Shown piece after piece: positions 13,960-32,899 of a DNA stretch of 64,000 nt; positions within the stretch are counted from its first letter, which is position 1, and each line of letters opens with the position of its first letter. Source of the stretch: a bacterium (GTDB taxonomy: Bacteria; UBA8248); NCBI GenBank assembly GCA_965207065.1, contig OZ242260.1, positions 2,048,001 through 2,112,000 on the forward strand, given 5' to 3'. The notes beneath the pieces were generated by a model. That model searched no databases, was not told the DNA's origin, and worked only from the letters and a program-made list of their open reading frames with translations. Both the position numbers and the translations under genes were made by a program.

Positions 13960-14400
13960 GACGCATCCTTTCGTATCCTCTCGTGTCGGCTCGCCCCGTC
14001 CTGAGGAGGGAGCGGCATCCGGTATCAGTCGATGCGGGAATACTATGGGCGAGGCGCGGTTTTGGCAACGGCGGGAGGAGAAAATGAGGGGGATGGATAC
14101 GAGAAAACGCTCCCGCGTCGCGCCGGTTCGAACGGGGAACGATGGCCGGAACGCTCATTACCGCATCTGGCGGGATTGATTATCTTCGGGTGATTCCCGC
14201 CATCGACCGACTTACCGGAAACATTCGGGAAACAATCCCGAAACCCCTATTTAACGATCGCGAAACCCACAAGACACGTATGGCTCATATCCTGATGAAT
14301 GTAGCAATGGGGCGGCAGCGTTCTTTCGGCTCGAATCTTCACCTACATGGAACATTTTCCCCGCAACCCGCGTCGCCGGGCGCAACGAAGGAGATGAGTG

Positions 14401-16062
14401 ATGAACCAGAACGCACCGGATAACAAGCAGGTCAAACGCCGTGATTTTCTGAAAATAGGAGCAGGCGCCGCCGCCGGGGCGGGGCTGTTGCCGCTCCTGA
14501 AATACCTGCCCGCCGAAGCGGCAGCGGGCCGCGACACGCTCGTGGTCGTGATCGGAAACGGCCCCAACAGCATGGACATCCACAGGAAGGGAACCAACCG
14601 TCCGAGCTACCAGGTCGCCGTGAACATCTACGACCGCCTCGTCACCTATGGGCGCAAGAAGCTGCCCGACGGCAACGTCATGTACGACTACCAGAAGATA
14701 GAACCGGAACTGGCGGAATCCTGGAGCTTTGCGCCCGACGGCATGTCCGTCACCTTCAAGATTCGCAAAGACGCCAGGTTCCACGACGGAAAACCCGTCA
14801 CCGCCCATGACGTGAAATGGTCTTTCGACCGCGCGGTCTCGCTCGGCGGTTTCCCTGCCGTGCAGATGAAGGCGGGTTCGCTCATCAAGCCCGAGCAGTT
14901 CGTCGCCGTGGATCAGCACACGTTCAAAATCAATTTCATCCGCAAGAGCAAACTCACGCTGCCCGACCTGGGCGTTCCCGTGCCTCTCATCATCAATTCG
15001 GCGGCCGCCAAGGCCAAGGCCACGAAGAGCGACCCGTGGGCGACCGAGTATCTGCATAAAAACCCGCAAGGGGGCGGGGCCTTCAAGCTGGGGCGTTGGA
15101 AGCCCGGCCAGCAGACCGTTTACGTTCGCAACGATGCGTGGAAGTCGGGCCCTCTGCCCGGCGTGAAGCGGGTGATCATACGCGAGGTGGCGTCCGCCTC
15201 CACGCGCCGCGCCCTCCTGCTGCGGGGAGACGCCGACGTGTCCCTCGATCTCCCGCCGAAGGACACCAAGGAACTCACGAGCAACAAGAAACTCAAGATC
15301 GCAGGAGTCCCCATCGAGAACTGCATCCACGCCGTCGGGCTGAACCTGAACTTCAAGCCCTTCGCCGACGTGCGGGTCCGCCAGGCGATGGCCTACGCCA
15401 TGCCTTACGAGAAGATATTCAAGGCGGCGGCCTATGAGCGCGGCCTGCCTCTGTGGGGAGCGAAATCACCCGATCCCGCCGGCACGCTGTGGCCCCAGCC
15501 GTTCCCCTACGACACCGACCCGGCCAAGGCGAAAGCCCTGCTCAAGGAGGCCGGCTACGCGAACGGGTTCAAGGTCACGCTGTCGTTCAACCTGGGACTC
15601 GCCTACTGGACGGAGCCGACGGCGCTTCTCATCCAGGAAGGGCTCGGGAAGGTGGGGATTGAAGCGAAGCTCGACAAGATCCCCGGTTCGGGCTGGCGGA
15701 CGAAGGCGCTCGTGGAGAAGAAGCTGGCGATGCACCTCAAGAACTTCGGGGGCTGGCTGAATTACCCTGAGTATTATTTCTTCTGGGCCTACCAGCCCAA
15801 GCGCCTGTTCAACTCGATGAACTACGACAACCCGAAGCTGAACAAGCTGGTGGACGAGACCCTGCACATGCCGGTGGGCAGCCCCGGCTACGCGGAGCGC
15901 GTCAAGTCGTTCATCAAAATCGCCTTTGAGGACGTTCCCCTCATCCCGCTCTGGCAGCCCTATCTCGATGTCGCCATGCAAAAGCACGTCGAAGGTTACG
16001 AATACTGGTTCCACCGTCAACTCGACGTGAGGTCGTTCAAGAAATTGCCGAAACAGGCCTGA
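14401..16062 (+). CDS. Dpp/Opp-family ABC substrate-binding protein, Tat-exported
   Basis: RRDFLK twin-arginine signal; PELAESW, FHDGKPVTAHDVKWSF, KPFADVRVRQAM. Confidence 0.9.
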   Translation: MNQNAPDNKQVKRRDFLKIGAGAAAGAGLLPLLKYLPAEAAAGRDTLVVVIGNGPNSMDIHRKGTNRPSYQVAVNIYDRLVTYGRKKLPDGNVMYDYQKIEPELAESWSFAPDGMSVTFKIRKDARFHDGKPVTAHDVKWSFDRAVSLGGFPAVQMKAGSLIKPEQFVAVDQHTFKINFIRKSKLTLPDLGVPVPLIINSAAAKAKATKSDPWATEYLHKNPQGGGAFKLGRWKPGQQTVYVRNDAWKSGPLPGVKRVIIREVASASTRRALLLRGDADVSLDLPPKDTKELTSNKKLKIAGVPIENCIHAVGLNLNFKPFADVRVRQAMAYAMPYEKIFKAAAYERGLPLWGAKSPDPAGTLWPQPFPYDTDPAKAKALLKEAGYANGFKVTLSFNLGLAYWTEPTALLIQEGLGKVGIEAKLDKIPGSGWRTKALVEKKLAMHLKNFGGWLNYPEYYFFWAYQPKRLFNSMNYDNPKLNKLVDETLHMPVGSPGYAERVKSFIKIAFEDVPLIPLWQPYLDVAMQKHVEGYEYWFHRQLDVRSFKKLPKQA

Positions 16063-16111
16063 AGCCGGCTCGCAGCAAAGCTGGGCGTCCTTTGAAGGGG
16101 GGGACGAATTG

Positions 16112-17137
16112 ATGAAAGGCGATTCCCTATTCCTGATCGGCCGGCGTCTCCTCCAGGCGGCGCCGGTCGTGATGGGGATCATCGTGGTGACGTTTATCCT
16201 GACGCGGGCCTTGCCGGGCGATCCGGCGGTGTTCTTCGCCGGGCCTGCGGCGGATGAGAAATCCATCGCCGAGATTCGCGCCTCTCTGGGACTCGATAAA
16301 AGCTGGCCCGAACAATTCTGGGTCTACCTCCAGAATCTCGCGCATGGTGATCTGGGCAAATCCATCAGCACGGGCCAACCCGTCATCGAAGAACTCGCCA
16401 CACGGCTTCCGGCTTCGCTCGAACTCACGTTCATGGGCTTGTTTCTCGCCGTCGCCATCGCCATCCCCCTGGGAATACTGGCGGCCACGCGGCCCAATTC
16501 ACTCATCGATCACCTCTGCCGTCTCGTTGTGACCATCGGGGTTTCGCTGCCCACCTTCTTCACCGGCTTGTTCCTCGTCTATATCTTCTATTTTCTGCTG
16601 GGGCTCTCGCCCGCTCCGCTCGGACGCCTGGGCATCATCCACATCGCTCCCGATCACGTCACGGGCTTCTACCTGATCGACAGCCTCATCGCGGGTGATC
16701 TCGAGGTATTCAGGGCATCATTCTCCCAGATGATTCTCCCCGCCTCGACTCTGGGAATCTTCGCCCTGGCCCCGCTCGCGCGGATGACGAGGGCCGCCAT
16801 GCTGGGGGTTCTGTCGAGCGACTTCGTTCGCACGGCGCGGGCGAGCGGCCTGTCACGCCGGACGGTGCTGTGGGTCTATGCCTTTCAAAACGCCATTCTC
16901 CCCGTCCTCACCACGCTCGGCATGGTGTTTTCTTTTTTGCTGGGAGCGAATGTTCTGGTGGAGAAAGTCTTCGCCTGGCCGGGCATCGGTTCGTTCGCCA
17001 TCGAGGCCCTCATCGCCTCGGACTACGCCGCCGTGCAGGGTTTCGTTCTGGCCATGGCGTTGATGTACGTGCTCCTGAACCTGGCGATCGACATCCTCTA
17101 TACGGTGGTCGATCCGCGGATCGGGCTGGAAGGCTGA
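16112..17137 (+). CDS. Dpp/Opp-family ABC permease (DppB-like)
   Basis: LPGDPA, GDLGKS, FVRTARASGL, VEKVFAWPGIG; start could be TTG 16109 or ATG 16112. Confidence 0.9.
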   Translation: MKGDSLFLIGRRLLQAAPVVMGIIVVTFILTRALPGDPAVFFAGPAADEKSIAEIRASLGLDKSWPEQFWVYLQNLAHGDLGKSISTGQPVIEELATRLPASLELTFMGLFLAVAIAIPLGILAATRPNSLIDHLCRLVVTIGVSLPTFFTGLFLVYIFYFLLGLSPAPLGRLGIIHIAPDHVTGFYLIDSLIAGDLEVFRASFSQMILPASTLGIFALAPLARMTRAAMLGVLSSDFVRTARASGLSRRTVLWVYAFQNAILPVLTTLGMVFSFLLGANVLVEKVFAWPGIGSFAIEALIASDYAAVQGFVLAMALMYVLLNLAIDILYTVVDPRIGLEG

Positions 17138-17141
17138 GTGC

Positions 17142-17987
17142 ATGAAAGCCCACATGCAGCACCTGCGCTACGTGATGGGTGAGAATCCGGTCACGTTTTT
17201 CTCCTTCATCCTTTTCTTCCTGCTGATGGCTCTCGGTTTGTTCGGCCCCTGGATTGCACCCTACGACCCCCTCGCCAGTGACACGGCCAACGCCCTCAAG
17301 CCGCCCACGTGGGCGCATCCGTTCGGCACGGACAATCTGGGGCGGGACGTTTTCAGCCGCGTTATTACGGCCACACGGCTCGACCTGGCGATATCGGTGG
17401 CGGCCGTTTCGCTCTCCTTCGTCGCGGGAAGCGTCGCCGGCGTTTGCGCGGGCTACTTCGGAGGGGTGACGGACAAACTCATCAGCCGCCTCACCGACAC
17501 CATCATGGCGTTTCCCCTTTTCGTGCTGGCCATGGGCATCGTATCGGCCCTGGGAAATACGATCGAGAACATCGTCTATACCACGGCCGTCATCAACTTC
17601 CCCTTCTATGCGCGCGTGGCGCGGGCCGAGGCGAATTCACGCCGCGAGGCGGGGTTCGTGGAGGCGGCGCGCCTTTCAGGAAACGGGCACGGGCGGATTC
17701 TGCTCTTCCACATGGGGCCCAACATCATGCCGCCGATGATGGTTCAGATTTCGCTGAACATGGGTTACGCCATACTGAATGCGGCGGGACTCTCCTTCAT
17801 CGGCCTCGGCGTCCGGCCCCCGACGCCCGAGTGGGGGATCATGGTGGCCGAGGGCGCGAAGTTTATCGTTTCAGGCGAGTGGTGGCTGGCCATCTTCCCC
17901 GGAGCCGCCCTGATGCTCGCCGTGCTGTGCTTCAACCTTCTGGGTGACGGCCTTCGAGACCTGATCGACCCGAGAATGAGGACGTGA
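17142..17987 (+). CDS. Dpp/Opp-family ABC permease (DppC-like)
   Basis: HPFGTDNLGRDVFSR, FVEAARLSG (EAA loop), LSFIGLG..PP.PEWG, FNLLGDGLRD. Confidence 0.92.
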   Translation: MKAHMQHLRYVMGENPVTFFSFILFFLLMALGLFGPWIAPYDPLASDTANALKPPTWAHPFGTDNLGRDVFSRVITATRLDLAISVAAVSLSFVAGSVAGVCAGYFGGVTDKLISRLTDTIMAFPLFVLAMGIVSALGNTIENIVYTTAVINFPFYARVARAEANSRREAGFVEAARLSGNGHGRILLFHMGPNIMPPMMVQISLNMGYAILNAAGLSFIGLGVRPPTPEWGIMVAEGAKFIVSGEWWLAIFPGAALMLAVLCFNLLGDGLRDLIDPRMRT

Positions 17988-18958
17988 TGGAATCCCGGAA
18001 CCCGCTTCTGGTCGTCGAGGATCTCTCGCTCGAATTCCGCACACGCACCGGCGTCGTCAAGGCCCTCGAGAACGTCAGTTTCCAGATCGAAAAGGGACAG
18101 ACGGTCGGCGTCGTCGGCGAGAGCGGCTCGGGAAAGTCCGTGATGTCTTACGCCATCATGGGAATCTCGGACCCGGCGGCGAGAATCACCTCGGGCCGGA
18201 TAGTTTTCGGGGGCATCTCTCTGTTCGAGAAGTCCCAGCAAGAGCTACAGGAAATGCGAGGACGTGAGCTCTCCATGATCTTCCAGAGCCCGAGAACGGC
18301 GCTCAATCCCATCCGGACCATCGGAAGACAACTCGAGGACGTCATCTATCGACACAGCAGCTTCCGCGGCCGGCAGATTCGCGCGCGCGCACTCGATCTG
18401 CTCAACCAGGTCCGCATCCCGGACCCTGAGAAGCGCTACCGCGCCTACCCGTTCGAACTCTCCGGCGGCATGTGCCAGCGCGTGATGATAGCGATCGCCA
18501 TCTCCTCCAACCCATGGCTCCTGATAGCGGACGAACCCGTGACGGGCCTGGACGTCACGACACAGGCGGTGATCATGGACCTCATCCAGGACGCGGCGCG
18601 TGAGAGAAACATGGGAACGATCCTCATCACACACGACCTGGGGCTCGCTGCGGAATACTGCGACAAGATAATCGTCATGCACTCGGGGCACGTCGTCGAA
18701 GTGGCCGATACCGAACACCTGTTCATGCGTCCGCGGCATCCCTACACGGCGAAACTCATCGGGGCCACGCCGAATGCGAGCAGAGACCTCGCCGCGCTTT
18801 CTTCGATTCCCGGCAACCTGCCGGACCTGCGCGCGGAACTCCCGGTTTGCCGCTACAGCGAGCGGTGCGAACGCTTCGCCCGGGATTGCCTGGAGTCCCC
18901 GCTTCCCCGCCTGGGAACGGGAGCCGGCCATCTCGTCGCCTGCCGGTATCCTCTCTGA
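17987..18958 (+). CDS. Dpp/Opp ABC ATP-binding protein (DppD-like)
   Basis: GESGSGKS, YPFELSGGMCQR, ADEP, PRHPYT, C-terminal Cys cluster. Confidence 0.92.
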   Translation: MESRNPLLVVEDLSLEFRTRTGVVKALENVSFQIEKGQTVGVVGESGSGKSVMSYAIMGISDPAARITSGRIVFGGISLFEKSQQELQEMRGRELSMIFQSPRTALNPIRTIGRQLEDVIYRHSSFRGRQIRARALDLLNQVRIPDPEKRYRAYPFELSGGMCQRVMIAIAISSNPWLLIADEPVTGLDVTTQAVIMDLIQDAARERNMGTILITHDLGLAAEYCDKIIVMHSGHVVEVADTEHLFMRPRHPYTAKLIGATPNASRDLAALSSIPGNLPDLRAELPVCRYSERCERFARDCLESPLPRLGTGAGHLVACRYPL

Positions 18959-20016
18959 TGGCTCTGCTCCAAATCGTCGACCTCATGAAGAAGTTCCCGA
19001 TCCGCCGGAGCGGAGCGGTGGGAAGGGTCTGGAATTCGCTGCGGGGCACGGGGGACGAAGAACGAGGCGAGGCGGGCTATCTCCATGCCGTGGACGGCGT
19101 GACATTCTCGATACAAGCGGGGGAGAGCGTCGGCCTCGTCGGCGAGTCCGGCTGCGGGAAGTCCACTCTCGCCCGCCTGATCGCCCGCCTGCTGGACCCG
19201 ACATCGGGCGCCATCGCCTTCGAGGGCAGGAACATCGGGGGGATTCCGGCGGGCCGATTCATCCAGGGCGAGATGCGCCGGAAAATCCAGATGGTGTTCC
19301 AGGACCCGACGGAAAGCCTGAATCCCGGGTTCACCACTTTTCGGGCGATTGCCGATCCGCTCTTGCGCCTGGGCGGGATGCGGCGCGGCCCCGGGTTGAG
19401 AATGCGCGTGGAGGAACTCTGCGAGCTGGTGGGTCTCGCGCCGGAGTTCCTGGGCCGGTACCCGCATCAACTCTCGGGCGGACAGAAGGCGCGGGTCGGA
19501 ATCGCCCGCGCGATAGCCCTGGACCCCTCTCTCCTGGTTCTGGACGAGCCCACCTCCGCCCTTGACGTTTCGGTTCAGGCGGTCATCCTGCATCTTCTCG
19601 AAGATCTGAAGAGCCGCCTCGGGATGAGCTACCTGTTCGTCTCCCATGACCTGAACATCGTCCGGCTGCTCTGCCAGCGGGTTCTGGTGATGTACCTAGG
19701 CAGGATTGTGGAGGCCGGGCCCACCGGGGAAATCCTGCACCGCCCGCGCCATCCCTACACTCGGGCGCTCCTCTCCGCCATTCCCGCCATCGACACGACA
19801 GAGCGCAGCGAGCGTGTGCGATTGACCGGCGAGCCGATGAGCCCCGTCGACCCCTCCCCGCAGGTCTGCCGGTTTTACAGCCGGTGTCCCCAAAGAGAAG
19901 AGAGGTGCCGACAGGAAATGCCGGTGCTGACGCCTTATCCCGGCGGCGTCGAGACCGCCTGCCATTTCCCGCTGGAGAAACAGGGGAATGCCGGGACGCG
20001 AACGGTGGTTTCCTGA
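18958..20016 (+). CDS. Dpp/Opp ABC ATP-binding protein (DppF-like)
   Basis: GESGCGKST, YPHQLSGGQKAR, DEPTSALDVSVQA, CRFYSRCP; start at ATG 18958 (TGATG overlap). Confidence 0.92.
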   Translation: MALLQIVDLMKKFPIRRSGAVGRVWNSLRGTGDEERGEAGYLHAVDGVTFSIQAGESVGLVGESGCGKSTLARLIARLLDPTSGAIAFEGRNIGGIPAGRFIQGEMRRKIQMVFQDPTESLNPGFTTFRAIADPLLRLGGMRRGPGLRMRVEELCELVGLAPEFLGRYPHQLSGGQKARVGIARAIALDPSLLVLDEPTSALDVSVQAVILHLLEDLKSRLGMSYLFVSHDLNIVRLLCQRVLVMYLGRIVEAGPTGEILHRPRHPYTRALLSAIPAIDTTERSERVRLTGEPMSPVDPSPQVCRFYSRCPQREERCRQEMPVLTPYPGGVETACHFPLEKQGNAGTRTVVS

Positions 20017-20141: not shown

Positions 20142-20730
20142 GCGCATTCGCCCGCATTTCCCTTTCGCGCGGATTCAGGGGATTCCGGTATCATGGCGGA
20201 GCCCGCCGCTTCGCTCCCGGATACGGAAACCCTCCCCGGTCGGGTCAAACGCTCGCTCCTCGCTCGCGTGAAACCCTCCCTCATCGGTCGCGTGAAACCC
20301 TCCCTCATCGGTCGGGTGAAACCCTCCCTCATCGGTCGGGTCAAACACTCGCTCATCACTCGCGTGAAACCCTCCCTCATCGGTCGGGTCAAACACTCGC
20401 TCATCGCTCGCGCGAAACCCTTCCTCATCGGTCGGGTTTTATATCCGAAAAATTCGATAAATATAGATAAATTCAGATAAATTCACGGGGTTTTTCGATA
20501 AATTATCGAGGGGAAATGCGGGGAATTGCGGTGCCCGGATGCGGGCAGATGCGCATGCGAAAACCGGCTCCGGCGGCCGGGTCCCGCCGCGGAATCCGGG
20601 CGCAGGGGAATTCTGTCATGACTCTTGCGTTCCCCGTTGACGGCAAATGCGCGGAATTGCGGGCGGGTGCGGTGGAGATGGGCGTTAATTTCGCGAATCG
20701 GCGGTTTTATCGTAGAATCGGGGCGGTTTT
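20142..20730 (+). repeat. ~387-bp repeated element, copy 1 (carries a 192-bp tandem array and one extra 10-bp GATAAATTCA unit)
   Basis: Aligns by eye end to end with the reverse complement of 34241-34627. Confidence 0.9.
20246..20437 (+). repeat. Tandem array of 8 x 24 bp (consensus GAAACCCTCCCTCATCGGTCGGGT)
   Basis: Eight contiguous 24-bp units of two variant types, with no unique spacers. Confidence 0.95.
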
Positions 20731-20747
20731 CTTGGTTAAGGAGCGCC

Positions 20748-21830
20748 ATGAACGTCACCAGACGCCGCTTGCTGCAGGTTGCGGGGCGAGTCGCGCCCCT
20801 GGCCGTGGTCGGAATCCCGCGCGACGCGCAGGCCTCGATGATGGGCCGCCTGTTCGACTGGCTGAACAGCCGTCCCGTCGAGACGCCCAAGCCCGGAGAG
20901 GGCATCCTCGAGTTCGCCGCGCGCGTGGTTCCCGAAGTCACGGCGAACGATAAATTCTACGTGCAGAGCATCGGCCATTCAGCGCCCAAGCTCTCCCGCC
21001 GGGAATGGCGATTGAAGGTCAAGGGTGAAGTAACCGAGCCTCTTTCAATTGCTTGGGCGGAGTTGAGCGCGCTCAGACAGGAGAAAACCTGGGCGACGAT
21101 GACCTGCATCGGAAACCCGGTGGGCGGCGGGCAGATTGGGAACGCCTTGTGGGAGGGAGTGCCGCTCACGACCCTCCTTGAGCGCTCCGGCGTGGAGGAA
21201 AACGTTCGCCGCTCGGTCTCCGCGAGGGTGATTTTTCGCGCGGCGGACGGATACCATGACGCCATATCTATCGAGCAGGCATTCGATTCGAGAACGCTTC
21301 TTTGCACCCGTATGAACGGGGAAATTCTTCCCCGGGATCATGGCGCTCCGCTCAGACTTCTATTGCCTGGGACTTACGGCCTCAAGAACGTCAAGTGGAT
21401 TGAATCCATTGAGATTACGACGAAGGGCCATGGCGGCTATTGGCAAAGGAGAGGCTGGTCGGATGAGGCGATTGTGGAGACGCTCAGCCGGTTCGAGGCT
21501 CCCAGAAGGCGCGTGGAGGTCCGGGCGGCGGAAGTCTGGCTCGTGGGCTCCGCTTTCGCGGGGGAGCGGGGAATCCACAGGGTGGAAGTGACTTATGGAC
21601 AGGGGAAGTATTCTCGGCCCTGGGCGCCCGCATTGCTCAAAAAGCCCCTGGGACCTCTCGCCTGGAGCCTCTGGGCGTTTCCCATGCGCTTTGCGGAAAA
21701 CGGATTCTATCCTGTGACGGTGCGGGCCATGGATGGGGCAGGAGAAGTTCAGACGGATGAGATTTCGGATCCACAACCCGGCGGGTCGACAGGGCGGATG
21801 GGACTCAGCATCTATGTGAAAGGGTTGTAG
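20748..21830 (+). CDS. Tat-exported molybdopterin oxidoreductase, sulfite-oxidase/MsrP-like family
   Basis: MNVTRRRLL signal, TMTCIGN (Mo-ligating Cys), NALWEGVPL, MNGEILPRDHGAPLRLLLPG.YG.KNVKWI, GYWQRRGW. Confidence 0.88.
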   Translation: MNVTRRRLLQVAGRVAPLAVVGIPRDAQASMMGRLFDWLNSRPVETPKPGEGILEFAARVVPEVTANDKFYVQSIGHSAPKLSRREWRLKVKGEVTEPLSIAWAELSALRQEKTWATMTCIGNPVGGGQIGNALWEGVPLTTLLERSGVEENVRRSVSARVIFRAADGYHDAISIEQAFDSRTLLCTRMNGEILPRDHGAPLRLLLPGTYGLKNVKWIESIEITTKGHGGYWQRRGWSDEAIVETLSRFEAPRRRVEVRAAEVWLVGSAFAGERGIHRVEVTYGQGKYSRPWAPALLKKPLGPLAWSLWAFPMRFAENGFYPVTVRAMDGAGEVQTDEISDPQPGGSTGRMGLSIYVKGL

Positions 21831-21850: not shown

Positions 21851-21888
21851 AAAAAACCCCGCCGGGTGACCGGCGGGGTTTCATTTTT
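21851..21888. terminator. Bidirectional rho-independent terminator
   Basis: AAAAAACCCCGCCGG-GTGA-CCGGCGGGGTTTCATTTTT between convergent genes. Confidence 0.85.
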
Positions 21889-21903: not shown

Positions 21904-22962
21904 TTAACGGCGTTTACCGCCCACGATGTTCGTTGCGCGTTTTTGGCGCTTGATCATCCAATTCTTGGGCGCCTCGATGCCGCTTCGATCCAGAATGTCG
22001 AGGTTGTGCTGGTAGGCCATGTAGTTCTTGATGTAGCTGAGCGTGCCGCCGCGATGAGGCGCGCCAGGGGGCTGCCGGCCTTCGATCAGGTCGATCACGT
22101 TATAGACGGCTTCTTTCGCCATGGCGATCTGCTCGGCCAGGACAGCCGCATGCACCCAGCCGTCACGAATGTCTTTCTCGATGCCGACGACGAGGTTGTG
22201 CGTCACGATCTTGATCTGGCCGGGTTTGTAGCCGGCCGCTTTCACGGCGTCCACCGTACCGCGGGCGATGAGCGTCGCCCAGGGGTAAATGCCTTTTACG
22301 TCCGGGTGTTTCTTGAGCAGGTCCTCCGCCGTCTGGTATGCATGCTGCACGTTGGACTTGGTGAATTCCTTGGCCACAACCTTGATTTTCGGATAGTGGC
22401 TCAGGTAGTCCTCAAACCCTTTGGCCATGGAGGTCACCATTTCGATGCCGCTGGGTCCGGGCAGCATCATGACTTTGCCCTGGTAGTTGATGGCGTGGGC
22501 CATGGTGGCGCCGATGAGAAGGCCCAATTCATAGCTGTTTTTCATGACGCGGTTTTTGACGCGAGCGCTGTCGAGGTCGATGTTGTCCACGACGACCTTG
22601 ATGCCCTTGTCCATCGCCTTGTGTACAGCGTTCACCATGCCTTTGGTGCTGATCGGGCAGATGATCATCCCGTCGTACTTCGCCGCGATGATGTCCTCCA
22701 CGTGGGCCACCTGCTTGGGCAGGAACTCGTAGCCGCCCGCGTCGAACATGGTCACGGTCACGCCGGCGTCTTTTGCCGCCTGGACGCTGCCGTACCATTT
22801 CGAGAAGAAATAGGGGTCGACGCCGTTCGGCACGACGACGGCGATCTTGTATTTCTTTTTCGCCTTCACCCGGGCGTCAGCGTCCGGGGCCGCCGCCATC
22901 GACACAAACAAGAATGTGACGACGGAAGCGAGAATCATGAAAGAGCGGAACAGTTTTTTCAT
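21904..22962 (-). CDS. Sugar ABC transporter substrate-binding protein (RbsB/Peripla_BP family)
   Basis: Signal peptide; KIAVVVP...DPYF, YDGMIICP, EDLLKKHPDVKGIY. Confidence 0.85.
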   Translation of the reverse strand: MKKLFRSFMILASVVTFLFVSMAAAPDADARVKAKKKYKIAVVVPNGVDPYFFSKWYGSVQAAKDAGVTVTMFDAGGYEFLPKQVAHVEDIIAAKYDGMIICPISTKGMVNAVHKAMDKGIKVVVDNIDLDSARVKNRVMKNSYELGLLIGATMAHAINYQGKVMMLPGPSGIEMVTSMAKGFEDYLSHYPKIKVVAKEFTKSNVQHAYQTAEDLLKKHPDVKGIYPWATLIARGTVDAVKAAGYKPGQIKIVTHNLVVGIEKDIRDGWVHAAVLAEQIAMAKEAVYNVIDLIEGRQPPGAPHRGGTLSYIKNYMAYQHNLDILDRSGIEAPKNWMIKRQKRATNIVGGKRR

Positions 22963-23051: not shown

Positions 23052-24047
23052 CTATTCCCGCCGCTTGCGGGAACTCAAAACAACTGCCGTAATAAGTAAA
23101 ACGCCTACCACTACCTCCCGGGCGAATGTGCCTACACCCAGGAGTATGAGGCCATTGAGCAAAAATGTCAGGAACAGCGTCCCGATCACTGCTTGCGTCA
23201 CGCCGCCCTCGCCGCCATGGAACGTCGTGCCCCCCACCACGGTGGCCGCCAATGACTGGAATTCAAGCTGAAATCCAGCGAGGCCGTTTGTGGCCGGGAG
23301 TCTCGCCAGGTAAAGGAACGATGTAATGCCTACGCAGATGCCGCTGATCAAATAGCAAATCAGTTTCACCTTGCCGGTGTCTATGCCTGAGAGACGCGCG
23401 GCCTCTTCGTTCCCGCCGGTCAAATAGATTGCCCGGCCGAGCACTGTTCGTTTCGTCAGCAAATAGAGAATGATGAAAAAGAAAATCGCGATGAACAGCG
23501 TGCCGGGAATATGAAAGAAATCCGTGAGGCCGATGGTTTGCAGAATATCTTTTTGCTCGCCTGTGAATTGATGAATGGTGCGTCCGCCCGTGAATACCAA
23601 AGCGATGCCGGCGCAGATGAAAAGCATACTCAAGGTGACGATAAAGGGCTGTATCTTTACGCGGCCCACGAGGTAGCCATTGATAAAACCGAACATCGTC
23701 GCCATTCCGATTCCCATCAACACGCCCACGGCCAGGCCGAAGTCCAGTATGCCCTGCGCCATCACCACACTTGAGAGGCTGAGCAAGGACCCTTGACTCA
23801 AATCGATGCCTGAGACCAGGAGCACCATGCTTTGTCCGGCGACGATGAAGAACAGCAGAGAAGCGTTTCTGAGTTGGTTGGTCAGGTTATGGGCTTCGAT
23901 AAAGTTGTTCACGTAGCCCATCAACTGGAGAATGTAAAATATGAGCATCATCATGATGAACACGACGAGCAAACCATATTTCTCGTAATTGAACTTGGCC
24001 AATAAGGAGGCAGAAGGTCTGACAGGAGCCTCCGCTACATTCGCCAT
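23052..24047 (-). CDS. Sugar ABC permease (RbsC-like)
   Basis: SGIDLSQGS, QPFIVTL, GGNEEAARLSGI, AATVVGGTTFHGGEG. Confidence 0.9.
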   Translation of the reverse strand: MANVAEAPVRPSASLLAKFNYEKYGLLVVFIMMMLIFYILQLMGYVNNFIEAHNLTNQLRNASLLFFIVAGQSMVLLVSGIDLSQGSLLSLSSVVMAQGILDFGLAVGVLMGIGMATMFGFINGYLVGRVKIQPFIVTLSMLFICAGIALVFTGGRTIHQFTGEQKDILQTIGLTDFFHIPGTLFIAIFFFIILYLLTKRTVLGRAIYLTGGNEEAARLSGIDTGKVKLICYLISGICVGITSFLYLARLPATNGLAGFQLEFQSLAATVVGGTTFHGGEGGVTQAVIGTLFLTFLLNGLILLGVGTFAREVVVGVLLITAVVLSSRKRRE

Positions 24048-24062
24048 GATTTATTATCTCCC

Positions 24063-25076
24063 TTAGTTTTTTTGCTCACGCAGGGTGCTCACCCAGATTG
24101 AAGCGAGAATCACCAAGCCGACAACTATCTGTTGCCGGTAGGTATCGATTCCCATGATGTTCAGTCCGTTCACCAGGAATATGATCAGGAAAACACCCAG
24201 CGTCGTACCTAACACGCCGCCTCGCCCGCCAAAAATATGCGTGCCGCCGATGATGGTCGCTCCGATTGACTGGAGCAGTTGATCGCCACCGCCCAGTCTC
24301 GGTTCGCCCGCCGCGCTCACACTTGCTGAAAGAAGAAGGCCCGCGAAACCACACAAAAGTCCACCTATGCCGAAAATGGCGATCTTCATGGCGGGAAAGT
24401 TGATGCCTGCGGAAATCGCTGTTTGTTCGTTTCCGCCCAAGGCGTACACATAAGTGCCAAAACGGGTGTATTTGAGCAGATACCACATGGCGCCAAGCGC
24501 GATGAGTATCCAGATGAAGGTGAAGGGGATGGGACCCAGGTTTCCTTTGGCCAAAAGGACATAAGCATCTTCGACGTGTTTGGGCAAAGTTGCGCCCTCG
24601 CGCGCGCCCCCCATTTGAAGGCCGCCGGTCCAAAGCTGGGCCGCGCCGCTGCCGATAAATAGCATTCCCAATGTCGCGATGAACGGCTGCACTCTTGCCA
24701 CTCCGACGAAAAACCCATTGATGACGCCGCACAGCAGACCGATGCCGAGGCCGGCGATGAGGCCAACGAAAAACCCGAAGTGCAGCATCGCGCTCCAGGC
24801 CATGACGCTCACCACGCTCATGATGGAGCCTTGTGAAAGATCAAATCCTGCTGAAATGATGACCAAAGTTTGGGCATAGGCTATGAAAAAGAGCCATGCG
24901 TCACGGCGCACTACATTCACAAAGTTTTCGAGGGTGAGGAAATTTTCGGTCGCGAAAGTATAGAAAATCATCAAAACTATGAAAGCGGAAATGAGGAGTA
25001 AGCGCTCAAATGGAATATCCTTGACAGAATACCCCAGGATGAGTTTCTCATTTCCCGTTGAAGCTGCGGCGCTCAT
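24063..25076 (-). CDS. Sugar ABC permease (RbsC-like)
   Basis: AGFDLSQGS, QPFIATLG, YTRFGTYVYALGGNE, IIGGTHIFGGRG. Confidence 0.9.
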   Translation of the reverse strand: MSAAASTGNEKLILGYSVKDIPFERLLLISAFIVLMIFYTFATENFLTLENFVNVVRRDAWLFFIAYAQTLVIISAGFDLSQGSIMSVVSVMAWSAMLHFGFFVGLIAGLGIGLLCGVINGFFVGVARVQPFIATLGMLFIGSGAAQLWTGGLQMGGAREGATLPKHVEDAYVLLAKGNLGPIPFTFIWILIALGAMWYLLKYTRFGTYVYALGGNEQTAISAGINFPAMKIAIFGIGGLLCGFAGLLLSASVSAAGEPRLGGGDQLLQSIGATIIGGTHIFGGRGGVLGTTLGVFLIIFLVNGLNIMGIDTYRQQIVVGLVILASIWVSTLREQKN

Positions 25077-25098: not shown

Positions 25099-27057
25099 TC
25101 AATCCGCGGTCATGGCGTAGCGCAGAATGCCTTCCTGCGTTGCTTCGTTTCTGCCGATATCTGCTGTGAGTTGTCCTTCCCTCATCACCAGAATGCGGTC
25201 GCTCATTCCAAGAATCTCGGGCAGTTCACTCGAGATCATCATTACCGCGGCGCCGTCTTTGGCAAGTTGCAGCATCTGCGAGTGAACTTCGAATTTTGCG
25301 CCTATGTCTATTCCGCGAGTCGGCTCATCAAAGATGAGTACATTCGCGCGTCTGAAGAGCCATTTGGCGAGAACGACTTTTTGCTGATTGCCGCCTGACA
25401 GGAAGCGTATTTGCGTCTCCTGATCCGGCGTCATGATTTTTAGCTGATTGATGTGTTCATCTACGAGATCTTTTTCCATGGTCAAGTTGAGCAGCCACCG
25501 TTTAATGAGGCGGCGGAGATTCGCGCTTGTGGTGTTAAAGGCGACCGAGAGAACCTGGGTAAGGCCCTGGGTTTTCCTGTCCTCGGGCAATAGCCCCAGC
25601 CCGCGTCGTATGGCCAAGGTTGGAGTCCACTTGCGCTCATAGGTAAGGATTGTCAAGAATCGAATCAGAACCATAGCGACGCCACCCCAGATCATGACCC
25701 ATTCGAGAACGAAATTCTGAGTGAACAGACTCGTAATGACCATCGCACCTATCGCGAGGGCGTACCAGCTTGCGAAGTCGATGACCAAGGTGCGCCAATG
25801 ATACTGCCGCTCCATAAACCAGAGACCCGCTTGCCGTAAAACGACCAACCCGGCGGCGACGATATAGGGGGTGGGGCCGTTCGGTATATTGTACAACGGT
25901 CCGCCGATGATCCATTCATAAAACCACTTGCCACTGAATAGCGGTGGCGGTGAATTCATGTTGAGCGTGACGGGATCGTAAATTCCCTGAAAAATTACGG
26001 TGAACAAGGGCAAAGCCATAATTAAGACAACCACGTCCAAGATGGCCATCCAGAGCGGATAGTGGGGGAGATTTTGTATCTCTTCTTTTTCTTTTGTCGC
26101 ACGAGTCATCTCTACGGTGCCGCTATCAACGGGATCCGCACCCATTACGGCCCGCGCCACTTCTGTTCTCCCTGCCCCTACGAGACCCGAGAGGCCGACG
26201 ATTTCTCCATAGTGGAGGTCGAAGTTGATGTCTTCGAATACGCCGTTTCGGGTGAGTCCACGCACCCGCAAAGCTACTTCTCCATGTTCACGGGGTGTCC
26301 AGGGGAATTTCTCATCAAGTGTGCGCCCCACCATCTGCGTGATCAGGAAATCGAGTTCCACCTCTTTGACTTCCCACGTGCCCATATATTCCCCGTCGCG
26401 CAGGACGGTGACGCGATCTCCAATCTCGTGGACTTCTTCAAGGCGGTGGGAGATGTAAATGATGCCGACACCGTGTTCTCGCAACCGGTTGACGGCCTTG
26501 AAAAGTTCCTCGATTTCATGCCCGCTCAGAGAAGAAGTGGGCTCATCCATCACCAATATTTTGCAGTCAAATACAAGAGCCCGGGCGATCTCCACCATTT
26601 GCTGATCCGCGACGCTTAGAGAGCGGACCGGCGCGTTGACGTCGATTTTCGCGTCCAGGCGCTCCATGATTGCGCGGGATTCTTGCTCGACTCTAGCCCA
26701 ATCCACACGCTTCATGATGCCAGGCAGTACCGGTTCACGACCCAGGAAGATGTTTTTGGCCACGCTCAGATCAGGCACCAGGTTCAGTTCCTGGTAGATG
26801 ACGCTGATTCCCAAATCGCGCCCGGTTCTGGCGTCGGGGATAATGGTGGGTGTTTCGCTAATCTCGATTTGGCCTGAGTCGGCGTGATACATGCCTGCCA
26901 ATATTTTGATGAGTGTGGATTTTCCGGCCCCGTTTTCACCCAACAGAATGTGAATTTCGCCCTCGGCGAGATCGAAATCAACTTCTTTGAGCGCATGAAC
27001 GCCCGGAAAGGATTTGTCGATTTCCATCATTCTGAGCAAGTTCTTGGATTCAGGCAC
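25099..27057 (-). CDS. Sugar ABC ATP-binding protein (RbsA/MglA-like, double NBD) with an internal membrane-domain insertion
   Basis: GENGAGKSTL, IYQELNL, DEPTSSL, YISHRL; GLVGAGRTE; PEDRK, LSGGNQQKV, DEPTRGIDIGAK, SSELPE; ~160-aa hydrophobic insert at about aa 318-477. Confidence 0.9.
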   Translation of the reverse strand: MPESKNLLRMMEIDKSFPGVHALKEVDFDLAEGEIHILLGENGAGKSTLIKILAGMYHADSGQIEISETPTIIPDARTGRDLGISVIYQELNLVPDLSVAKNIFLGREPVLPGIMKRVDWARVEQESRAIMERLDAKIDVNAPVRSLSVADQQMVEIARALVFDCKILVMDEPTSSLSGHEIEELFKAVNRLREHGVGIIYISHRLEEVHEIGDRVTVLRDGEYMGTWEVKEVELDFLITQMVGRTLDEKFPWTPREHGEVALRVRGLTRNGVFEDINFDLHYGEIVGLSGLVGAGRTEVARAVMGADPVDSGTVEMTRATKEKEEIQNLPHYPLWMAILDVVVLIMALPLFTVIFQGIYDPVTLNMNSPPPLFSGKWFYEWIIGGPLYNIPNGPTPYIVAAGLVVLRQAGLWFMERQYHWRTLVIDFASWYALAIGAMVITSLFTQNFVLEWVMIWGGVAMVLIRFLTILTYERKWTPTLAIRRGLGLLPEDRKTQGLTQVLSVAFNTTSANLRRLIKRWLLNLTMEKDLVDEHINQLKIMTPDQETQIRFLSGGNQQKVVLAKWLFRRANVLIFDEPTRGIDIGAKFEVHSQMLQLAKDGAAVMMISSELPEILGMSDRILVMREGQLTADIGRNEATQEGILRYAMTAD

Positions 27058-28342: not shown

Positions 28343-29314
28343 TTACATCATGCCCGATTCTTTCCAGTAACGAGCCGCACCCGGGTGAATCTTGAGTTTC
28401 TTCATGCCGCGAAGGCCGGTCTTTTTGGTGACGAACTTTCCGGTCGGGTGGTATTTGGTGATTTGCTTGTGATTGTCATACAGGGCTTTGACGATCCCGT
28501 ATGCGTTGTCGTTGCTCATTACGCTGTTGGTCATCAAAGTCCACATCTGACCCCAGCTTACGACGTCTTTTTTGTATCCGGGAATGGAGCCGGCGGTCAC
28601 GACATCGCGCACGATGCCTGCTTCGTTCGTAGCCAGTGCTTTGATGGTGGCTTCATCCGGACCAAAGAAATGAAGTTTGCCGGAAAGCGTGCGCGCGAGT
28701 TCCATGTACACAGGTGCGGGAACGTTCGCGTTCAGAAAGAAAAATCCCGCGTCCACTCTTTCGTCTCTGATAGCGGCTGCATTCTGGGGATTGTTGAAGA
28801 ACTCTTTTTTCGCATTCACGCCACTGTGTTTAAGCGCAAGCTGCGTCACGATATAAATGGAACCCCCGCGACCGCCGACGACAAATCTTCTTCCTGTGAG
28901 GTCGGACCATTTTTTAATTCCGGAGGTTTTGAAGGTCGTATAGACAGTCGTCAATGGGTATAGGGCCCCTAACGCCAGCACGTCTTGAGGTTTCTTGAAT
29001 GGTTTTCTACCCGTTTGCCCCCACGAAACGGCAGGCGCAGTGGCCATGCCTATGCGGAATGGCTGCATCTTGTTCTTTTTCTGCAGGGTTCGGACATTTG
29101 CGGTCGAACCGCCGGTAATGGATGCAGCCACCGAAATCTTTCCGCCCGAGTTATCCGTGATGACTTTACCCATTGCGGTTCCAATCTCGAAGGTTGCGCC
29201 GCCGGGCTGGGACGTTCCCAACAGTATTTTGGCTGCGTCCGCCGCCGGGGCCGTGCCGATAACCAAGGCAAGGCCTGCTGCCAACGTAATCAGCCGAAGT
29301 GTGGATTTCCTCAT
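28343..29314 (-). CDS. TAXI-family TRAP transporter solute-binding subunit
   Basis: Signal peptide; GTSQPGG, TGGSTANV, IKKWSDLTGRR, HPGAARYWKE. Confidence 0.9.
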   Translation of the reverse strand: MRKSTLRLITLAAGLALVIGTAPAADAAKILLGTSQPGGATFEIGTAMGKVITDNSGGKISVAASITGGSTANVRTLQKKNKMQPFRIGMATAPAVSWGQTGRKPFKKPQDVLALGALYPLTTVYTTFKTSGIKKWSDLTGRRFVVGGRGGSIYIVTQLALKHSGVNAKKEFFNNPQNAAAIRDERVDAGFFFLNANVPAPVYMELARTLSGKLHFFGPDEATIKALATNEAGIVRDVVTAGSIPGYKKDVVSWGQMWTLMTNSVMSNDNAYGIVKALYDNHKQITKYHPTGKFVTKKTGLRGMKKLKIHPGAARYWKESGMM

Positions 29315-29584: not shown

Positions 29585-32500
29585 ATGACTACTGAATCAG
29601 AACCCACCCAGTCGGCTCCTCTCGTAAGGGCTCTGGTTTTCATCACCTCCTGGCTGTGCGTACTCTCGGGTTTGTACCACATATCCGCAGTCTATCTGCG
29701 GCCTTTACCGGGTGAGATGCACCCCAACATGCACATGCTGTTGGCCTATACCATTCTCCTCATCGGCGGCGCCGGGGCGATGCCTCAGATATATGGGGAT
29801 AAAATTCGCAAATTGAATTTTCTTCCCGTTCTGTACCTATTGTCTTTGATTCCCGCCGTTATTTTCTATTACTTCGTATATGAGATGGGAGAGGGTTGGT
29901 CTGATGCGAGTGTTTGGTGGGTTTATGCGCTCCCGTTCGCTATATGGATAGCGATGATGGTTGTGGAGAAGTCATGGCTTGCGCTTTTTCTCTGGTTTTT
30001 GGGCTTAGTTCCTGCGCCCATACTGTTCTGGTATTGGGATTATTTGCCAGAAAGCACGCATGAGCCCACCTTTTGGTGGCTGATAATCGCATGCTCCGCC
30101 ATTCCCACGATGTGGACCTTGTTCGCGGTTTTCTTCAGGCCTGCCGAAGGGGTGAAAAAGGCGGGTGTTTTTCTCGTTATATTTTTCGTAGCGCTTGTTC
30201 TAATCGGATGGCGGGTAAGTTTATGGGCCGGGCAAAGCGATGATGTGAGAAGCGCTTTTTACCTCTGGCCGGTAGTCGTACTCGCTTTTCCTCTTTTCTG
30301 GGCGAAAAGACGCATCAAAGAGGTATTTGAAGAATTCCCGGCACACCCTTTTCCGGCTGGTTTCACGATTGGCCTGAACGCCGGGATGCTCTTTTTCGTG
30401 GCGACTGCGTGCCTCTACCTGTTCTACTACCACGAAGAGATGGTAGACCGCCCGGGCGCTCCGACGATTGGCGATGCTCGCGTCGGCTTCGTCATGCTCG
30501 TCGTCGCTATCGAATTGACGAGGCGTTGTTTCGGGCCTCCCCTGCCAACATTGGCGGTTATTGCTTTCGTCTATGGGATTTGGGGCAATTTGTTCGCACC
30601 TCCTTTCGGGCATGGTGGCCATACATGGCTCGAACTTCAAGCGAAACTATCGACGGACTTTATCGGTGGCGTATTGGGCTTTTTGGTCGTCATTTCGGCG
30701 ACCTTCATCATCATGTTCCTTATTTTAGGAGCGTTTCTGCATGAATCGGGCGCAGGCCGTTTTTTCGTGAATTTCGCTTTAGGTCTGTTCGGGAAAATGC
30801 GAGCTGGCGCCGGTCTCGCCGCTGTGGGGTCGAGCGCGCTCATGGGTACGGTGTCGGGCAGCGCATCAGGCAACGTCGTGACCACCGGCACATTCACGAT
30901 TCCCCTGATGAAGCGAATCGGGCTGAGTCCACACATTGCCGGAGCGGCGGAAGCGGCGGCCAGCAGCGGGGGGCAGATCATGCCGCCTGTCATGGGGGCG
31001 GGCGCCTTCATTATGAGTGAACTCATCGAAGTGCCGTATTTCCAGCTTATCGGATACGCCACCATACCGGCCATCTTGTATTTCACCATCGTGGGGATCA
31101 ACATCCACTTTGCGGCCGGTGCGCTTAACATCCAGCCGTTGCCTACTAACGAAATTCCGAGTTGGAGGGTGGAACTCAGAAACGGATGGTTCTATCTCGT
31201 GCCCCTGGCGTTTTTGGTCTACTTCCTTTTTCAAGGCAGAACGCCAGTCTTTGCGGGCGTCATGTCGGTTTTCATCATGGTGGGCATCTGGTTTTACCGG
31301 AACGTGGCGGAATTCCTGGGTACGATGAGGAGGGGTGATAAGACAATCGCAGATGATGTATTCGTTTTTGTGCCTGTTCTGTTTTGGGTTTTCGCATTTT
31401 TCTTATACACGTTGCTCACGGTTTTCGAGTTGGGTTTCGGATTACCGTTGGGGATATATGAAAAGCCGACTTGGGGCGGGGCGATAAGGGCTGCTCTGTC
31501 TATGGGTGTCGTCGGATTTGTTCTGGCGAGTGTTTTCGCTCGCAAGTTCTCCTGGGTGCGTGAATTCTGGCGCGAGACAGAAAGCAACTGGCTCGCCATC
31601 TTCCCAATCACAATATTGGGTTTGTGGGTGGCGTTCGGCTGGTCTTCCGGCGTGGCGGGAGCCGCCCTCGTGCTTGCCCTGTTGTGTGTATGGTCCGTTT
31701 CCAGGGGCAATGGAGCGCAACCCACTACGACAATACCCTGGTATTTTGTCATGATTTGGGTGGGTGCATATTACGTGCAAAAAGGGATTTATGCGCTTGT
31801 CCCAGCGATAGCGAATTTCGGCGAATGGTTCGTTCCCTTCGGGTTCATCTATGACGGCCTGATCTTTTTCGGGTTGGCAGTGATTGTCCAGAGAGTCATA
31901 TTTTCATTCGGCTCGCAAGAATCCGAGGCCGATGGCCCGACGCCGAGCGTAAAGCAGGTGTTGGCTGTATCCTGCAATCCGTTTACCTATTTACAGCGCG
32001 CGAAGCAGATTGATGAAACAGGCCCCGCCGTGCAGGCTGCTCAGAGCGCCTCCGATTGGATTTTCAGCATTCGTAATGCCTTGAGGGTAGGAGGCAGGCA
32101 AGGCGCTGAGTTCGCCGTGACGCTGGCCACCATTGAAGTCGTCGTTCAGGTTCTGTCCATCACGGGCGTGGGTAACAAATTCGCCTATATGATTGAAACT
32201 CTCGCCCAGGATATATGTCTGTTCGGCCCTGCGGCGGGCGGCGGGTGCGCGTACTATATCGGTCTCGATGGTTTCTTCGTCGCGTTGCTTCTCACGGCGG
32301 TTTGTTGTGCGATATTGGGAATGGGCATGCCGACGACGGCGGCATACGTTCTGCTCGCCATTCTGGGCGGCCCCGTACTGATTAAACTCGTAGGTCCTGA
32401 ACTTACGCATGTTTACGGAGCCGAATGGGTGAAGGAGTTCGTGGCCGCCAAAGGAGACCGTGTCGCCGCCCATATGTTCATCTTCTATTTCGCGATTCTC

Positions 32501-32899
32501 TCCGCCATTACGCCGCCCGTGGCGATAGCTTCGCTCGTGGGAGCCAAACTGGCGGGCGCGTCCTATTTCCAGACGTCCATGATGTCTCTTCGCTTCGCCA
32601 TCGTCGGCTTTATCGTGCCGTTTTTGTTCATGTTCGACCCGGCCCTGCTCACGTTCGGGCATCCGTTGCGCGTCGCTCTCTCCGCATCCATGACGCTCCT
32701 GGGGTTCATCGCTTTTTCGGCGGGCACACAAGGCTGGCTTCTGGGGAGGCTTTATAAATACGAGCGAATTCTCTTGTTCGTCTGTTTCATCACGTTCATC
32801 TTGTTCGTCATTTTCTTCAGTATCACCATGCTGGTAGCGGGCCTGGTTTGCGGCGGGATTCCGCTCATCCGGCAGATCAAGGATTACAAGCGAAACTAG
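29585..32899 (+). CDS. TAXI-TRAP fused (4TM/12TM) permease, enlarged to 1104 aa
   Basis: SSALMGTVSGS, TGTFTIPLMK, EAAASSGGQIMPPVMGAGAF, LGMGMPTTAAY, AAHMFIFYFAILSAITPPV; divergent from the TAXI gene. Confidence 0.92.
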   Translation: MTTESEPTQSAPLVRALVFITSWLCVLSGLYHISAVYLRPLPGEMHPNMHMLLAYTILLIGGAGAMPQIYGDKIRKLNFLPVLYLLSLIPAVIFYYFVYEMGEGWSDASVWWVYALPFAIWIAMMVVEKSWLALFLWFLGLVPAPILFWYWDYLPESTHEPTFWWLIIACSAIPTMWTLFAVFFRPAEGVKKAGVFLVIFFVALVLIGWRVSLWAGQSDDVRSAFYLWPVVVLAFPLFWAKRRIKEVFEEFPAHPFPAGFTIGLNAGMLFFVATACLYLFYYHEEMVDRPGAPTIGDARVGFVMLVVAIELTRRCFGPPLPTLAVIAFVYGIWGNLFAPPFGHGGHTWLELQAKLSTDFIGGVLGFLVVISATFIIMFLILGAFLHESGAGRFFVNFALGLFGKMRAGAGLAAVGSSALMGTVSGSASGNVVTTGTFTIPLMKRIGLSPHIAGAAEAAASSGGQIMPPVMGAGAFIMSELIEVPYFQLIGYATIPAILYFTIVGINIHFAAGALNIQPLPTNEIPSWRVELRNGWFYLVPLAFLVYFLFQGRTPVFAGVMSVFIMVGIWFYRNVAEFLGTMRRGDKTIADDVFVFVPVLFWVFAFFLYTLLTVFELGFGLPLGIYEKPTWGGAIRAALSMGVVGFVLASVFARKFSWVREFWRETESNWLAIFPITILGLWVAFGWSSGVAGAALVLALLCVWSVSRGNGAQPTTTIPWYFVMIWVGAYYVQKGIYALVPAIANFGEWFVPFGFIYDGLIFFGLAVIVQRVIFSFGSQESEADGPTPSVKQVLAVSCNPFTYLQRAKQIDETGPAVQAAQSASDWIFSIRNALRVGGRQGAEFAVTLATIEVVVQVLSITGVGNKFAYMIETLAQDICLFGPAAGGGCAYYIGLDGFFVALLLTAVCCAILGMGMPTTAAYVLLAILGGPVLIKLVGPELTHVYGAEWVKEFVAAKGDRVAAHMFIFYFAILSAITPPVAIASLVGAKLAGASYFQTSMMSLRFAIVGFIVPFLFMFDPALLTFGHPLRVALSASMTLLGFIAFSAGTQGWLLGRLYKYERILLFVCFITFILFVIFFSITMLVAGLVCGGIPLIRQIKDYKRN

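Follow-up and report, generated by a model that had tools for sequence, protein, structure and literature searches.

The nucleotide-binding domain (NBD) is the textbook soluble and interchangeable engine of ABC transporters. Large soluble insertions are known in ABC-type NBDs, among them the insertion domains of UvrA, the coiled coils of Rad50/SMC proteins and the regulatory insertion of CFTR. Within the importer ATPases AraG, XylG, RbsA and MglA of the CUT2 family (TC 3.A.1.2), two NBDs are arranged in tandem and typically differ in their motifs: a Lys Walker A goes with a degenerate signature in one, and an Arg Walker A with a consensus signature (and without the H-loop His) in the other. 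Here, we analyse an ATPase gene from a 64,000-nucleotide stretch of bacterial DNA (contig OZ242260.1 of assembly GCA_965207065.1, positions 2,048,001 to 2,112,000; GTDB lineage UBA8248), the whole of which we call the window. Its product resembles the Escherichia coli proteins AraG, XylG, RbsA and MglA (NF008442, NF010069, NF008030, NF008215) in its tandem NBDs, motif asymmetry and operon layout. Where these carry a short hairpin, however, 8 residues are replaced by a hydrophobic insert of 160 residues with four predicted helices.

The nearest parallels differ from this arrangement in two ways. As in UvrA, Rad50/SMC and CFTR, the ABC fold tolerates an insert between its Walker A part and its signature/Walker B part, but those insertions are soluble, whereas the one described here is composed like a membrane domain. 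ABC exporters and MacB/FtsX-type proteins likewise unite membrane helices and an NBD on one polypeptide. In those proteins, however, the transmembrane domain (TMD) and the NBD are linked terminus to terminus, and the TMD serves as a translocation or mechanotransmission pathway. Here the helices are nested within the fold of the NBD, and two complete permeases exist besides them.

An insert within the second NBD

An earlier note on this DNA had read the protein as a normal RbsA/MglA-type sequence running to DSGTVEM and resuming, in frame, within 652 aa. This proved accurate: the tandem NBDs are of CUT2 type, and the segment it delimited at 25627-26106 corresponds exactly to residues 318-477. 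Ordinary NBD sequence thus extends up to ...DSGTVEM (residue 317) and is taken up again at TPTLAIRRGLGLLPEDRK (residue 478), and in alignment A1 (17 insert-bearing and 5 insert-less rows) the 160 residues here stand opposite 8 in the five insert-less relatives. On its N-terminal side the insertion site borders the strand (...GTVEM) that comes after the Walker A helix of NBD2; on its C-terminal side follow a short helix and a strand that lead to PEDRK, the Q-loop-equivalent of NBD2, some 15 residues further on. In the AlphaFold2 model the site is flanked by a strand (312-317) on one side and by a helix (479-484) followed by a strand (487-490) on the other. Profile matches reflect the same split. 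Pfam ABC_tran (E 8.8e-48) falls into 3 stretches because the insert divides NBD2, and the NCBIfam models for AraG, XylG and RbsA align in 2 stretches that flank the insert and span the model length.

The protein has the tandem ABC_tran domains and asymmetric motifs of a CUT2 ATPase and is encoded in an operon with BPD_transp_2 permeases and a Peripla_BP_4 binding protein. NBD1 combines a consensus Walker A (GENGAGKST) with a degenerate signature (LSVADQQ). NBD2 has the Walker A GAGRT, the Q-loop-equivalent PEDRK, the signature LSGGNQQK, the Walker B FDEPT and ISSE, with Ser in place of the H-loop His. NBD2 therefore contributes the degenerate Walker A, and the insert sits in the NBD of the degenerate site. 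In alignment A3, GENGAGKST, LSVADQQ, GAGRT, LSGGNQQK and ISSE are invariant or nearly so across the insert-bearing and 28 insert-less rows, and the motifs downstream of the insert, which had been described as intact, indeed fall in invariant columns common to insert-less relatives. The further claim that two complete permeases are present in addition to the insert holds as well, given that the NCBIfam RbsC model aligns end to end with both. Judged by sequence, the insert thus leaves the ATP motifs and both permeases intact. AlphaFold2 models both NBDs confidently (predicted local distance difference test, pLDDT, 79-94), and the best Foldseek matches of the full-length model are fused double-NBD ATPases (the OppD/DppD chains of M. 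tuberculosis), which confirms the tandem-NBD fold and nothing beyond it. CUT2 ATPases are, however, soluble subunits of ~500 aa in which the Walker A helix of NBD2 is followed by a short hairpin, and in this the protein departs from them.

That this compact form is the usual one, as the earlier note had held, is borne out by a contig search in which 59 of the 78 loci kept encode insert-less proteins of ~475-511 aa. These are 45-53% identical to the ATPase and come from Chloroflexota, Actinomycetota, Pseudomonadota, Bacillota and others; the remaining loci comprise 18 with the long gene (L001-L018) and one fragment at a contig end. A search of 51 Nitrospinota genomes, 29 of them of high quality, with the insert alone recovered it in 27, including 16 of the high-quality set. 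By genus, it occurs in 21 of 22 genomes of g1 (the miss is a 79%-complete genome), 4 of 5 of g9 and the single genome of g6. The other 12 genera have none, so that the insert-bearing genera number three of 15, all in one Nitrospinota family. Every match in the phylum lies in one open frame of 628-710 codons, and several of the genomes are single contigs. Among 5.8 billion database proteins, 22 clusters at 90% identity carry the insert, 19 of them of 643-670 aa and three being fragments, and at 50% identity a single cluster remains among 1.84 billion. The architecture is rare, and the objection that it might already be common in databases does not apply. Cluster names are nearly all 'sugar ABC transporter ATP-binding protein' or similar and refer to metagenome-assembled genomes (MAGs) of Nitrospinota, and it is because public names say just this that the insert is invisible to annotation. 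Among the named members consulted from 8 of the 22 clusters, almost every entry derives from a MAG and carries the label Nitrospinota or 'bacterium', with SAR324 as the label of one fragment, and no cultured strain is named.

Misassembly at the junctions had been named as a possible objection. It is met by independent assemblies and by contigs of two other runs that cross both junctions: in DNA runs X3 and X4, one of them labelled a sponge metagenome, the gene is contained in full on single contigs that differ by 8 and 22 substitutions and show no indel. The GC content of the insert equals that of its flanks. The insert is real and not a misassembly, and its presence at the same site in 27 of 51 genomes is far beyond chance. 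Two RNA libraries contain contigs at least 99% identical to parts of the gene, some of these parts lying inside the insert, and none of the contigs bridges either insert junction by the 31-letter rule. Expression of the ATPase gene is thus possible, with DNA carry-over as an alternative.

Three further observations concern the sampled copies. Apparent 'joints' in run X4 were discarded, as their sides measured 20-26 letters and came from other contigs sharing short ABC motifs. In the orthologue of a marine Nitrospinota MAG (L018:2931-4911), the 3' part of NBD2 includes a string of X and is out of frame, so that the open frame measures 618 aa; this is either an assembly error or the mark of a decaying copy. 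Genome G050 holds a partial second copy of the N-terminal part of the ATPase (C91:4309-4905; 79% identity, a contig fragment of 239 codons), which probably stems from a duplicated gene, from a variant strain or from a split in the assembly.

As to its origin, the insert is a lineage-specific orphan without detectable relatives. A profile of 15 inserts run against 1.84 billion representative proteins gave one match, its own 50%-identity cluster. Pfam found no family shared by the 15 inserts (four different weak matches, each to a single member), a profile search of the PDB with the insert gave 0 matches at E up to 1, and the ESM Atlas returned unnamed clusters only (at 0.91). Within its own 4.48-Mb genome no second copy was detected by blastn or tblastn, where matches stayed at chance level. 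The same holds for likeness to both operon permeases (blastp) and for an internal repeat (residues 1-100 of the insert against 101-160). An intein or mobile element is ruled out: no Pfam family, Hint and transposase included, is shared by the 15 inserts, the segment occurs once in the genome and its ratio of non-synonymous to synonymous change (dN/dS) is 0.07-0.20.

Relatives of the NBDs tell more about when the insert arrived. The same genome encodes three further CUT2 ATPases without it (47, 38 and 36% identity). Searching the phylum with residues 1-317 yielded insert-bearing orthologues at 80-100% identity, followed by a full-length best match of 58% in genome G012, with all others at or below 54%. 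The G012 ATPase (locus L087; another genus of the same Nitrospinota family) has ~7 residues at the insertion site versus 160 here, is 58% identical before the site and 63% after it, and is encoded in the same gene order (ATPase, two permeases, binding protein). Its permeases and binding protein, however, are only 36-40% identical to those here, so that we regard this locus as a related system rather than the same one minus the insert. In a tree built from 496 NBD columns, from which a fill filter had removed the insert columns, 46 rows were compared: 16 insert-bearing, 28 of the 59 insert-less loci, G012 and one paralogue from the same genome (L002, L003, L008, L014 and L018 were omitted). The insert-bearing rows form one clade (SH-aLRT 100) with G012 as its sister (89). 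A single gain, before the three genera split, explains these data. The stem of the clade is long (0.65 changes per NBD column), and the NBDs therefore changed considerably around the time the insert was gained.

Membrane character and conservation

The description of the insert as about four hydrophobic, Trp-rich segments is matched by the hydropathy profile. With a 19-residue window the Kyte-Doolittle scale gives four peaks in the insert (2.67, 1.37, 1.78-1.69 and 2.02) and values of at most 1.3 over the rest of the protein, while Trp makes up 9 of 161 residues (5.6%) versus 1.0% elsewhere. On a position-independent sum of Hessa-scale values, for which the median of the protein is 18.3, helices 1 to 4 score 0.48, 6.36, 1.53 and 0.39. 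Three helices are hence strongly hydrophobic and the second, which contains an invariant Arg-Gln, is marginal. Lys and Arg account for 8 of 35 residues in the predicted cytoplasmic segments versus 1 of 42 in the predicted outer loops, and loop 1 has a single one in 39 residues. Both AlphaFold2 runs (full length and insert alone) place the four helices as listed in Table 1 and add a short one in the long loop and another in the N-terminal linker, with the pLDDT of the insert at 40-49 in the full-length model and at 55 on average when folded alone. A complex prediction for residues 306-492 with both permeases scored 0.00 and carries no weight either way.

Since both ends of the insert continue a cytoplasmic domain, the number of spans should be even. 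Together with the three strongly hydrophobic segments this makes four spans the most economical solution, helix 2 being the weak one. The distribution of charges and the aromatic belts would fit such an in-out-in-out-in topology with both ends inside, and the earlier suggestion of a membrane architecture therefore finds agreement in four predicted hydrophobic helices with positive-inside charges.

Selection on the insert was assessed by pairwise Nei-Gojobori comparisons with 12 of the 18 loci (L011 and L016-L018, of differing lengths, as well as L002 and L008 were omitted). In these 12 comparisons the NBDs yield dN/dS values of 0.03-0.07 and the insert as a whole values of 0.07-0.20, with loop 1 taken by itself at 0.01-0.10. 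The insert is kept by purifying selection. Column entropies over 15 inserts reveal how unevenly this acts. Loop 1 has a mean entropy of 0.29 (24 of 39 columns invariant), loop 3 of 0.00 (3 of 3), the outer half of helix 1 of 0.32 (7 of 11) and that of helix 4 of 0.37 (6 of 12). These values come near that of the NBDs (0.26; 331 of 492 columns invariant), while the inner helix halves range from 0.66 to 0.95 (the latter for helix 1) and loop 2 stands at 1.07, with none of its 5 columns invariant. The N-terminal linker is well conserved (8 of 17 columns invariant), and five charged residues within helices are invariant: Asp341, Arg408, Asp427, Glu452 and Arg466. Within the insert, conservation thus peaks in those halves of helices 1 and 4 that are predicted to lie in the outer leaflet, and in the predicted outer loops.

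A possible accessory membrane subunit in cis

How may these features be reconciled? We lean, with moderate confidence, towards the view that the insert is an accessory membrane subunit provided in cis, i.e. an integral module that fastens the degenerate NBD2 to the membrane next to the permeases and acts at the outer face. Its four helices would cross the membrane in-out-in-out-in and so turn the ATPase into an integral membrane protein. Because helix 4 rejoins NBD2 after 4-5 residues, the bundle should lie at the outer edge of NBD2, beside the docking permease, and because conservation is strongest in the outer helix halves and outer loops, we read the module as more than an anchor. A periplasm-facing patch may contact the outer face of the transporter, be it permease loops or the docked binding protein, and the helices of the module would then link that face mechanically to NBD2. 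In a bolder version, which we put forward as a rather unlikely one, the insert would signal directly through the membrane by a second route that bypasses the coupling helices of the permeases: its invariant outer patch would sense either a ligand in the periplasm or the docking of the binding protein, and helices 1 and 4 would relay this to the hairpin beside the degenerate ATP site of NBD2.

Several points weigh against an accessory membrane subunit. Membrane insertion is deduced from hydropathy and from helices predicted at low confidence (pLDDT 40-55), the hydrophobicity of helix 2 looks only marginal, and contact with the permeases or the binding protein is something we only infer. That the NBD2 hairpin faces the membrane has no solved CUT2 structure to lean on, as judged by a sequence search of the PDB. 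Lastly, the family is narrow (at least 64% identity in the insert), so that the conservation patterns rest on few independent changes.

Some of these points favour other explanations. Were the insert hydrophobic without spanning the membrane, it could be a soluble or interfacial helical domain on NBD2 that serves, for instance, oligomerisation or lipid binding. The low-confidence models and the marginal helix 2 would agree with this, but three segments of at least 19 residues lie near 0 on the insertion scale, against the median of 18.3, and both the charges and the aromatic belts are placed as a membrane topology would have them, which makes a non-spanning domain improbable to our minds. A plain membrane anchor, whose helices hold the ATPase at the membrane and engage no specific partner or signal, accounts for the hydrophobic helices and the positive-inside pattern and also for the location of the insert, as a degenerate NBD should tolerate bulk. 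Such an anchor might help if CUT2 ATPases bind their permeases loosely; work by Clifton and colleagues in 2015 on the reassembly of E. coli RbsABC is reported to point to such loose binding. For anchoring, however, hydrophobicity alone would suffice, yet 24 of 39 residues in the outer loop are invariant, as are the TQN loop and the five intrahelical charges, and constraint on the outer half equals that on the NBDs. We therefore consider a mere anchor unlikely, albeit the likeliest of the alternatives.

The invariant charges (Table 1), the conserved outer face and a site that immediately follows the Walker A helix of NBD2 and precedes the Q-loop-equivalent by ~15 residues might instead speak for an autonomous sensor or regulator that responds to ligand, proton-motive force or lipids and gates the degenerate NBD2 site independently of the permeases. 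Against this, neither profile, ESM Atlas, Pfam nor PDB searches revealed similarity to known sensor domains, buried charge pairs are common in purely structural helix bundles too and the conserved neighbourhood of the operon contains no regulatory partner gene, so we find a sensor somewhat harder still to credit than a plain anchor. As for an artefact or a decaying insertion (misassembly, mobile-element remnant, intein or pseudogene), the frameshifted 3' end of orthologue L018 may be quoted in its favour. With the same site and frame in 27 genomes and in contigs of other runs, dN/dS well below 1 and a GC content no different from the flanks, we regard this explanation as practically negligible.

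Whatever its role, the insert defines a real, conserved and rare domain architecture that is not described in the literature, family libraries or solved structures searched. Our literature search, with most subscription journals outside its coverage, returned no description of this ATPase or of an NBD-nested membrane domain, and neither is described in the passages of PMC10839748 consulted. A conserved membrane domain threaded through an NBD fold departs from the way in which NBD and TMD ordinarily share their tasks, and raises the question of what an importer gains from tying its degenerate NBD into the membrane beside two complete permeases. The case is a tractable one, involving one gene, a clean boundary and an insert-less relative able to supply the hairpin. 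As a sequence search of the PDB found no structure of a CUT2 ATPase or permease, a structure of this transporter would be doubly informative.

Operon and neighbouring genes

The ATPase gene heads a four-gene operon on the minus strand, running from 27057 down to 21904 (ATPase, two permeases, binding protein), and this order is common to the 18 insert-bearing loci (in L016 it is interrupted by a contig end). Features of the operon and of the insert are compiled in Table 1.

Table 1. Position of the ATPase gene, its parts and the genes of its operon in the window.
Feature	Position	Strand	Remarks
ATPase gene (CUT2/RbsA-like, tandem-NBD, nested insert)	25099..27057	-	652 aa, GTG start
NBD1 and start of NBD2 (residues 1-317)	26107..27057	-	read from sequence; columns invariant in A1/A3
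Insert (residues 318-477): a conserved linker on the cytoplasmic side, then four hydrophobic helices with a long loop and two short ones (predicted)	25627..26106	-	
Helix 1 (residues 335-356, predicted), invariant Asp341, outer half nearly invariant	25990..26055	-	Kyte-Doolittle peak 2.67; AlphaFold2 helix
Loop 1 (residues 357-395), predicted periplasmic, Pro/Trp/Tyr-rich, short helix 376-384	25873..25989	-	
Helix 2 (residues 396-415, predicted), marginally hydrophobic, invariant Arg408-Gln409	25813..25872	-	
Helix 3 (residues 421-445, predicted), invariant Asp427	25723..25797	-	
Helix 4 (residues 449-473, predicted), invariant Glu452 and Arg466	25639..25713	-	4-5 residues before NBD2 resumes
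Remaining NBD2 (residues 478-652): PEDRK, LSGGNQQK, FDEPT, Ser for H-loop His	25099..25626	-	sequence and invariant A3 columns common to insert-less relatives
Permease 1 (337 aa, BPD_transp_2)	24063..25076	-	77-97% identical across 18 insert-bearing loci
Permease 2 (331 aa, BPD_transp_2)	23052..24047	-	
Periplasmic substrate-binding protein (352 aa, Peripla_BP_4, signal peptide)	21904..22962	-	
GC-rich 12-bp hairpin, likely two-way terminator, between the convergent ends of the operon and the molybdopterin-oxidoreductase gene	21854..21881		pattern match only

What the system transports is hard to tell from the family models. Among these, NCBIfam AraG gives the ATPase 548.6 bits, XylG 510.3, RbsA 509.8 and MglA 472.3, while the equivalog cut-offs of the four lie at 689-828 bits. 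None of the substrate-specific equivalogs (AraG, XylG, RbsA, MglA, YtfR, GguA, AlsA, LsrA) is reached, the best being AraG at 548.6 versus a cut-off of 689. As the ATPase scores below every equivalog cut-off, no substrate can be assigned. The top NCBIfam model for the binding protein is TorT (104 bits versus a cut-off of 200), and its nearest solved relatives are CUT2 monosaccharide binders, at no better than E 1e-20. TorT is a periplasmic protein that senses trimethylamine N-oxide. The binding-protein gene is convergent with a gene for an Oxidored_molyb molybdopterin oxidoreductase (20625-21830, plus strand), and this neighbour is kept in 15 of the 18 insert-bearing loci at 62-86% identity. 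Taken with the TorT match below cut-off, it might hint at a ligand other than a sugar. The window holds no riboswitch, its 3 Rfam matches all lying away from the operon, and scans for promoters and terminators stayed at chance level.

Alignment A4 brought to light a stretch of 10 residues in permease 1 (residues 158-167; window 24576-24605) and one of 5 residues in permease 2 (residues 42-46) that are specific to insert-bearing systems and absent from the permeases of insert-less ones. These extra stretches might be contact sites for the insert.

The window as a whole is a cluster of uptake systems. Just upstream of the CUT2 operon, at 14398-20013 on the plus strand, lies a complete Opp/Dpp-type peptide ABC operon with an SBP_bac_5 protein (Tat signal), two permeases and two ATPases, the latter with oligo_HPY tails and without an insert. 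On the other side, 29585-32899 (plus strand) encodes a DctM-type TRAP permease of 1,104 aa, unusually long for a fused TAXI-TRAP permease. DctM matches it in 2 stretches, best at residues 303-573, and the protein has a hydrophobic N-terminal extension of ~300 residues; its gene adjoins that of an NMT1_3/TAXI-type binding protein (28343-29314, minus strand). Further away, at 2355-2635 on the minus strand, Rfam reports the 5' ureB sRNA over its full length (95.6 bits), a match that probably reflects a urease gene there.

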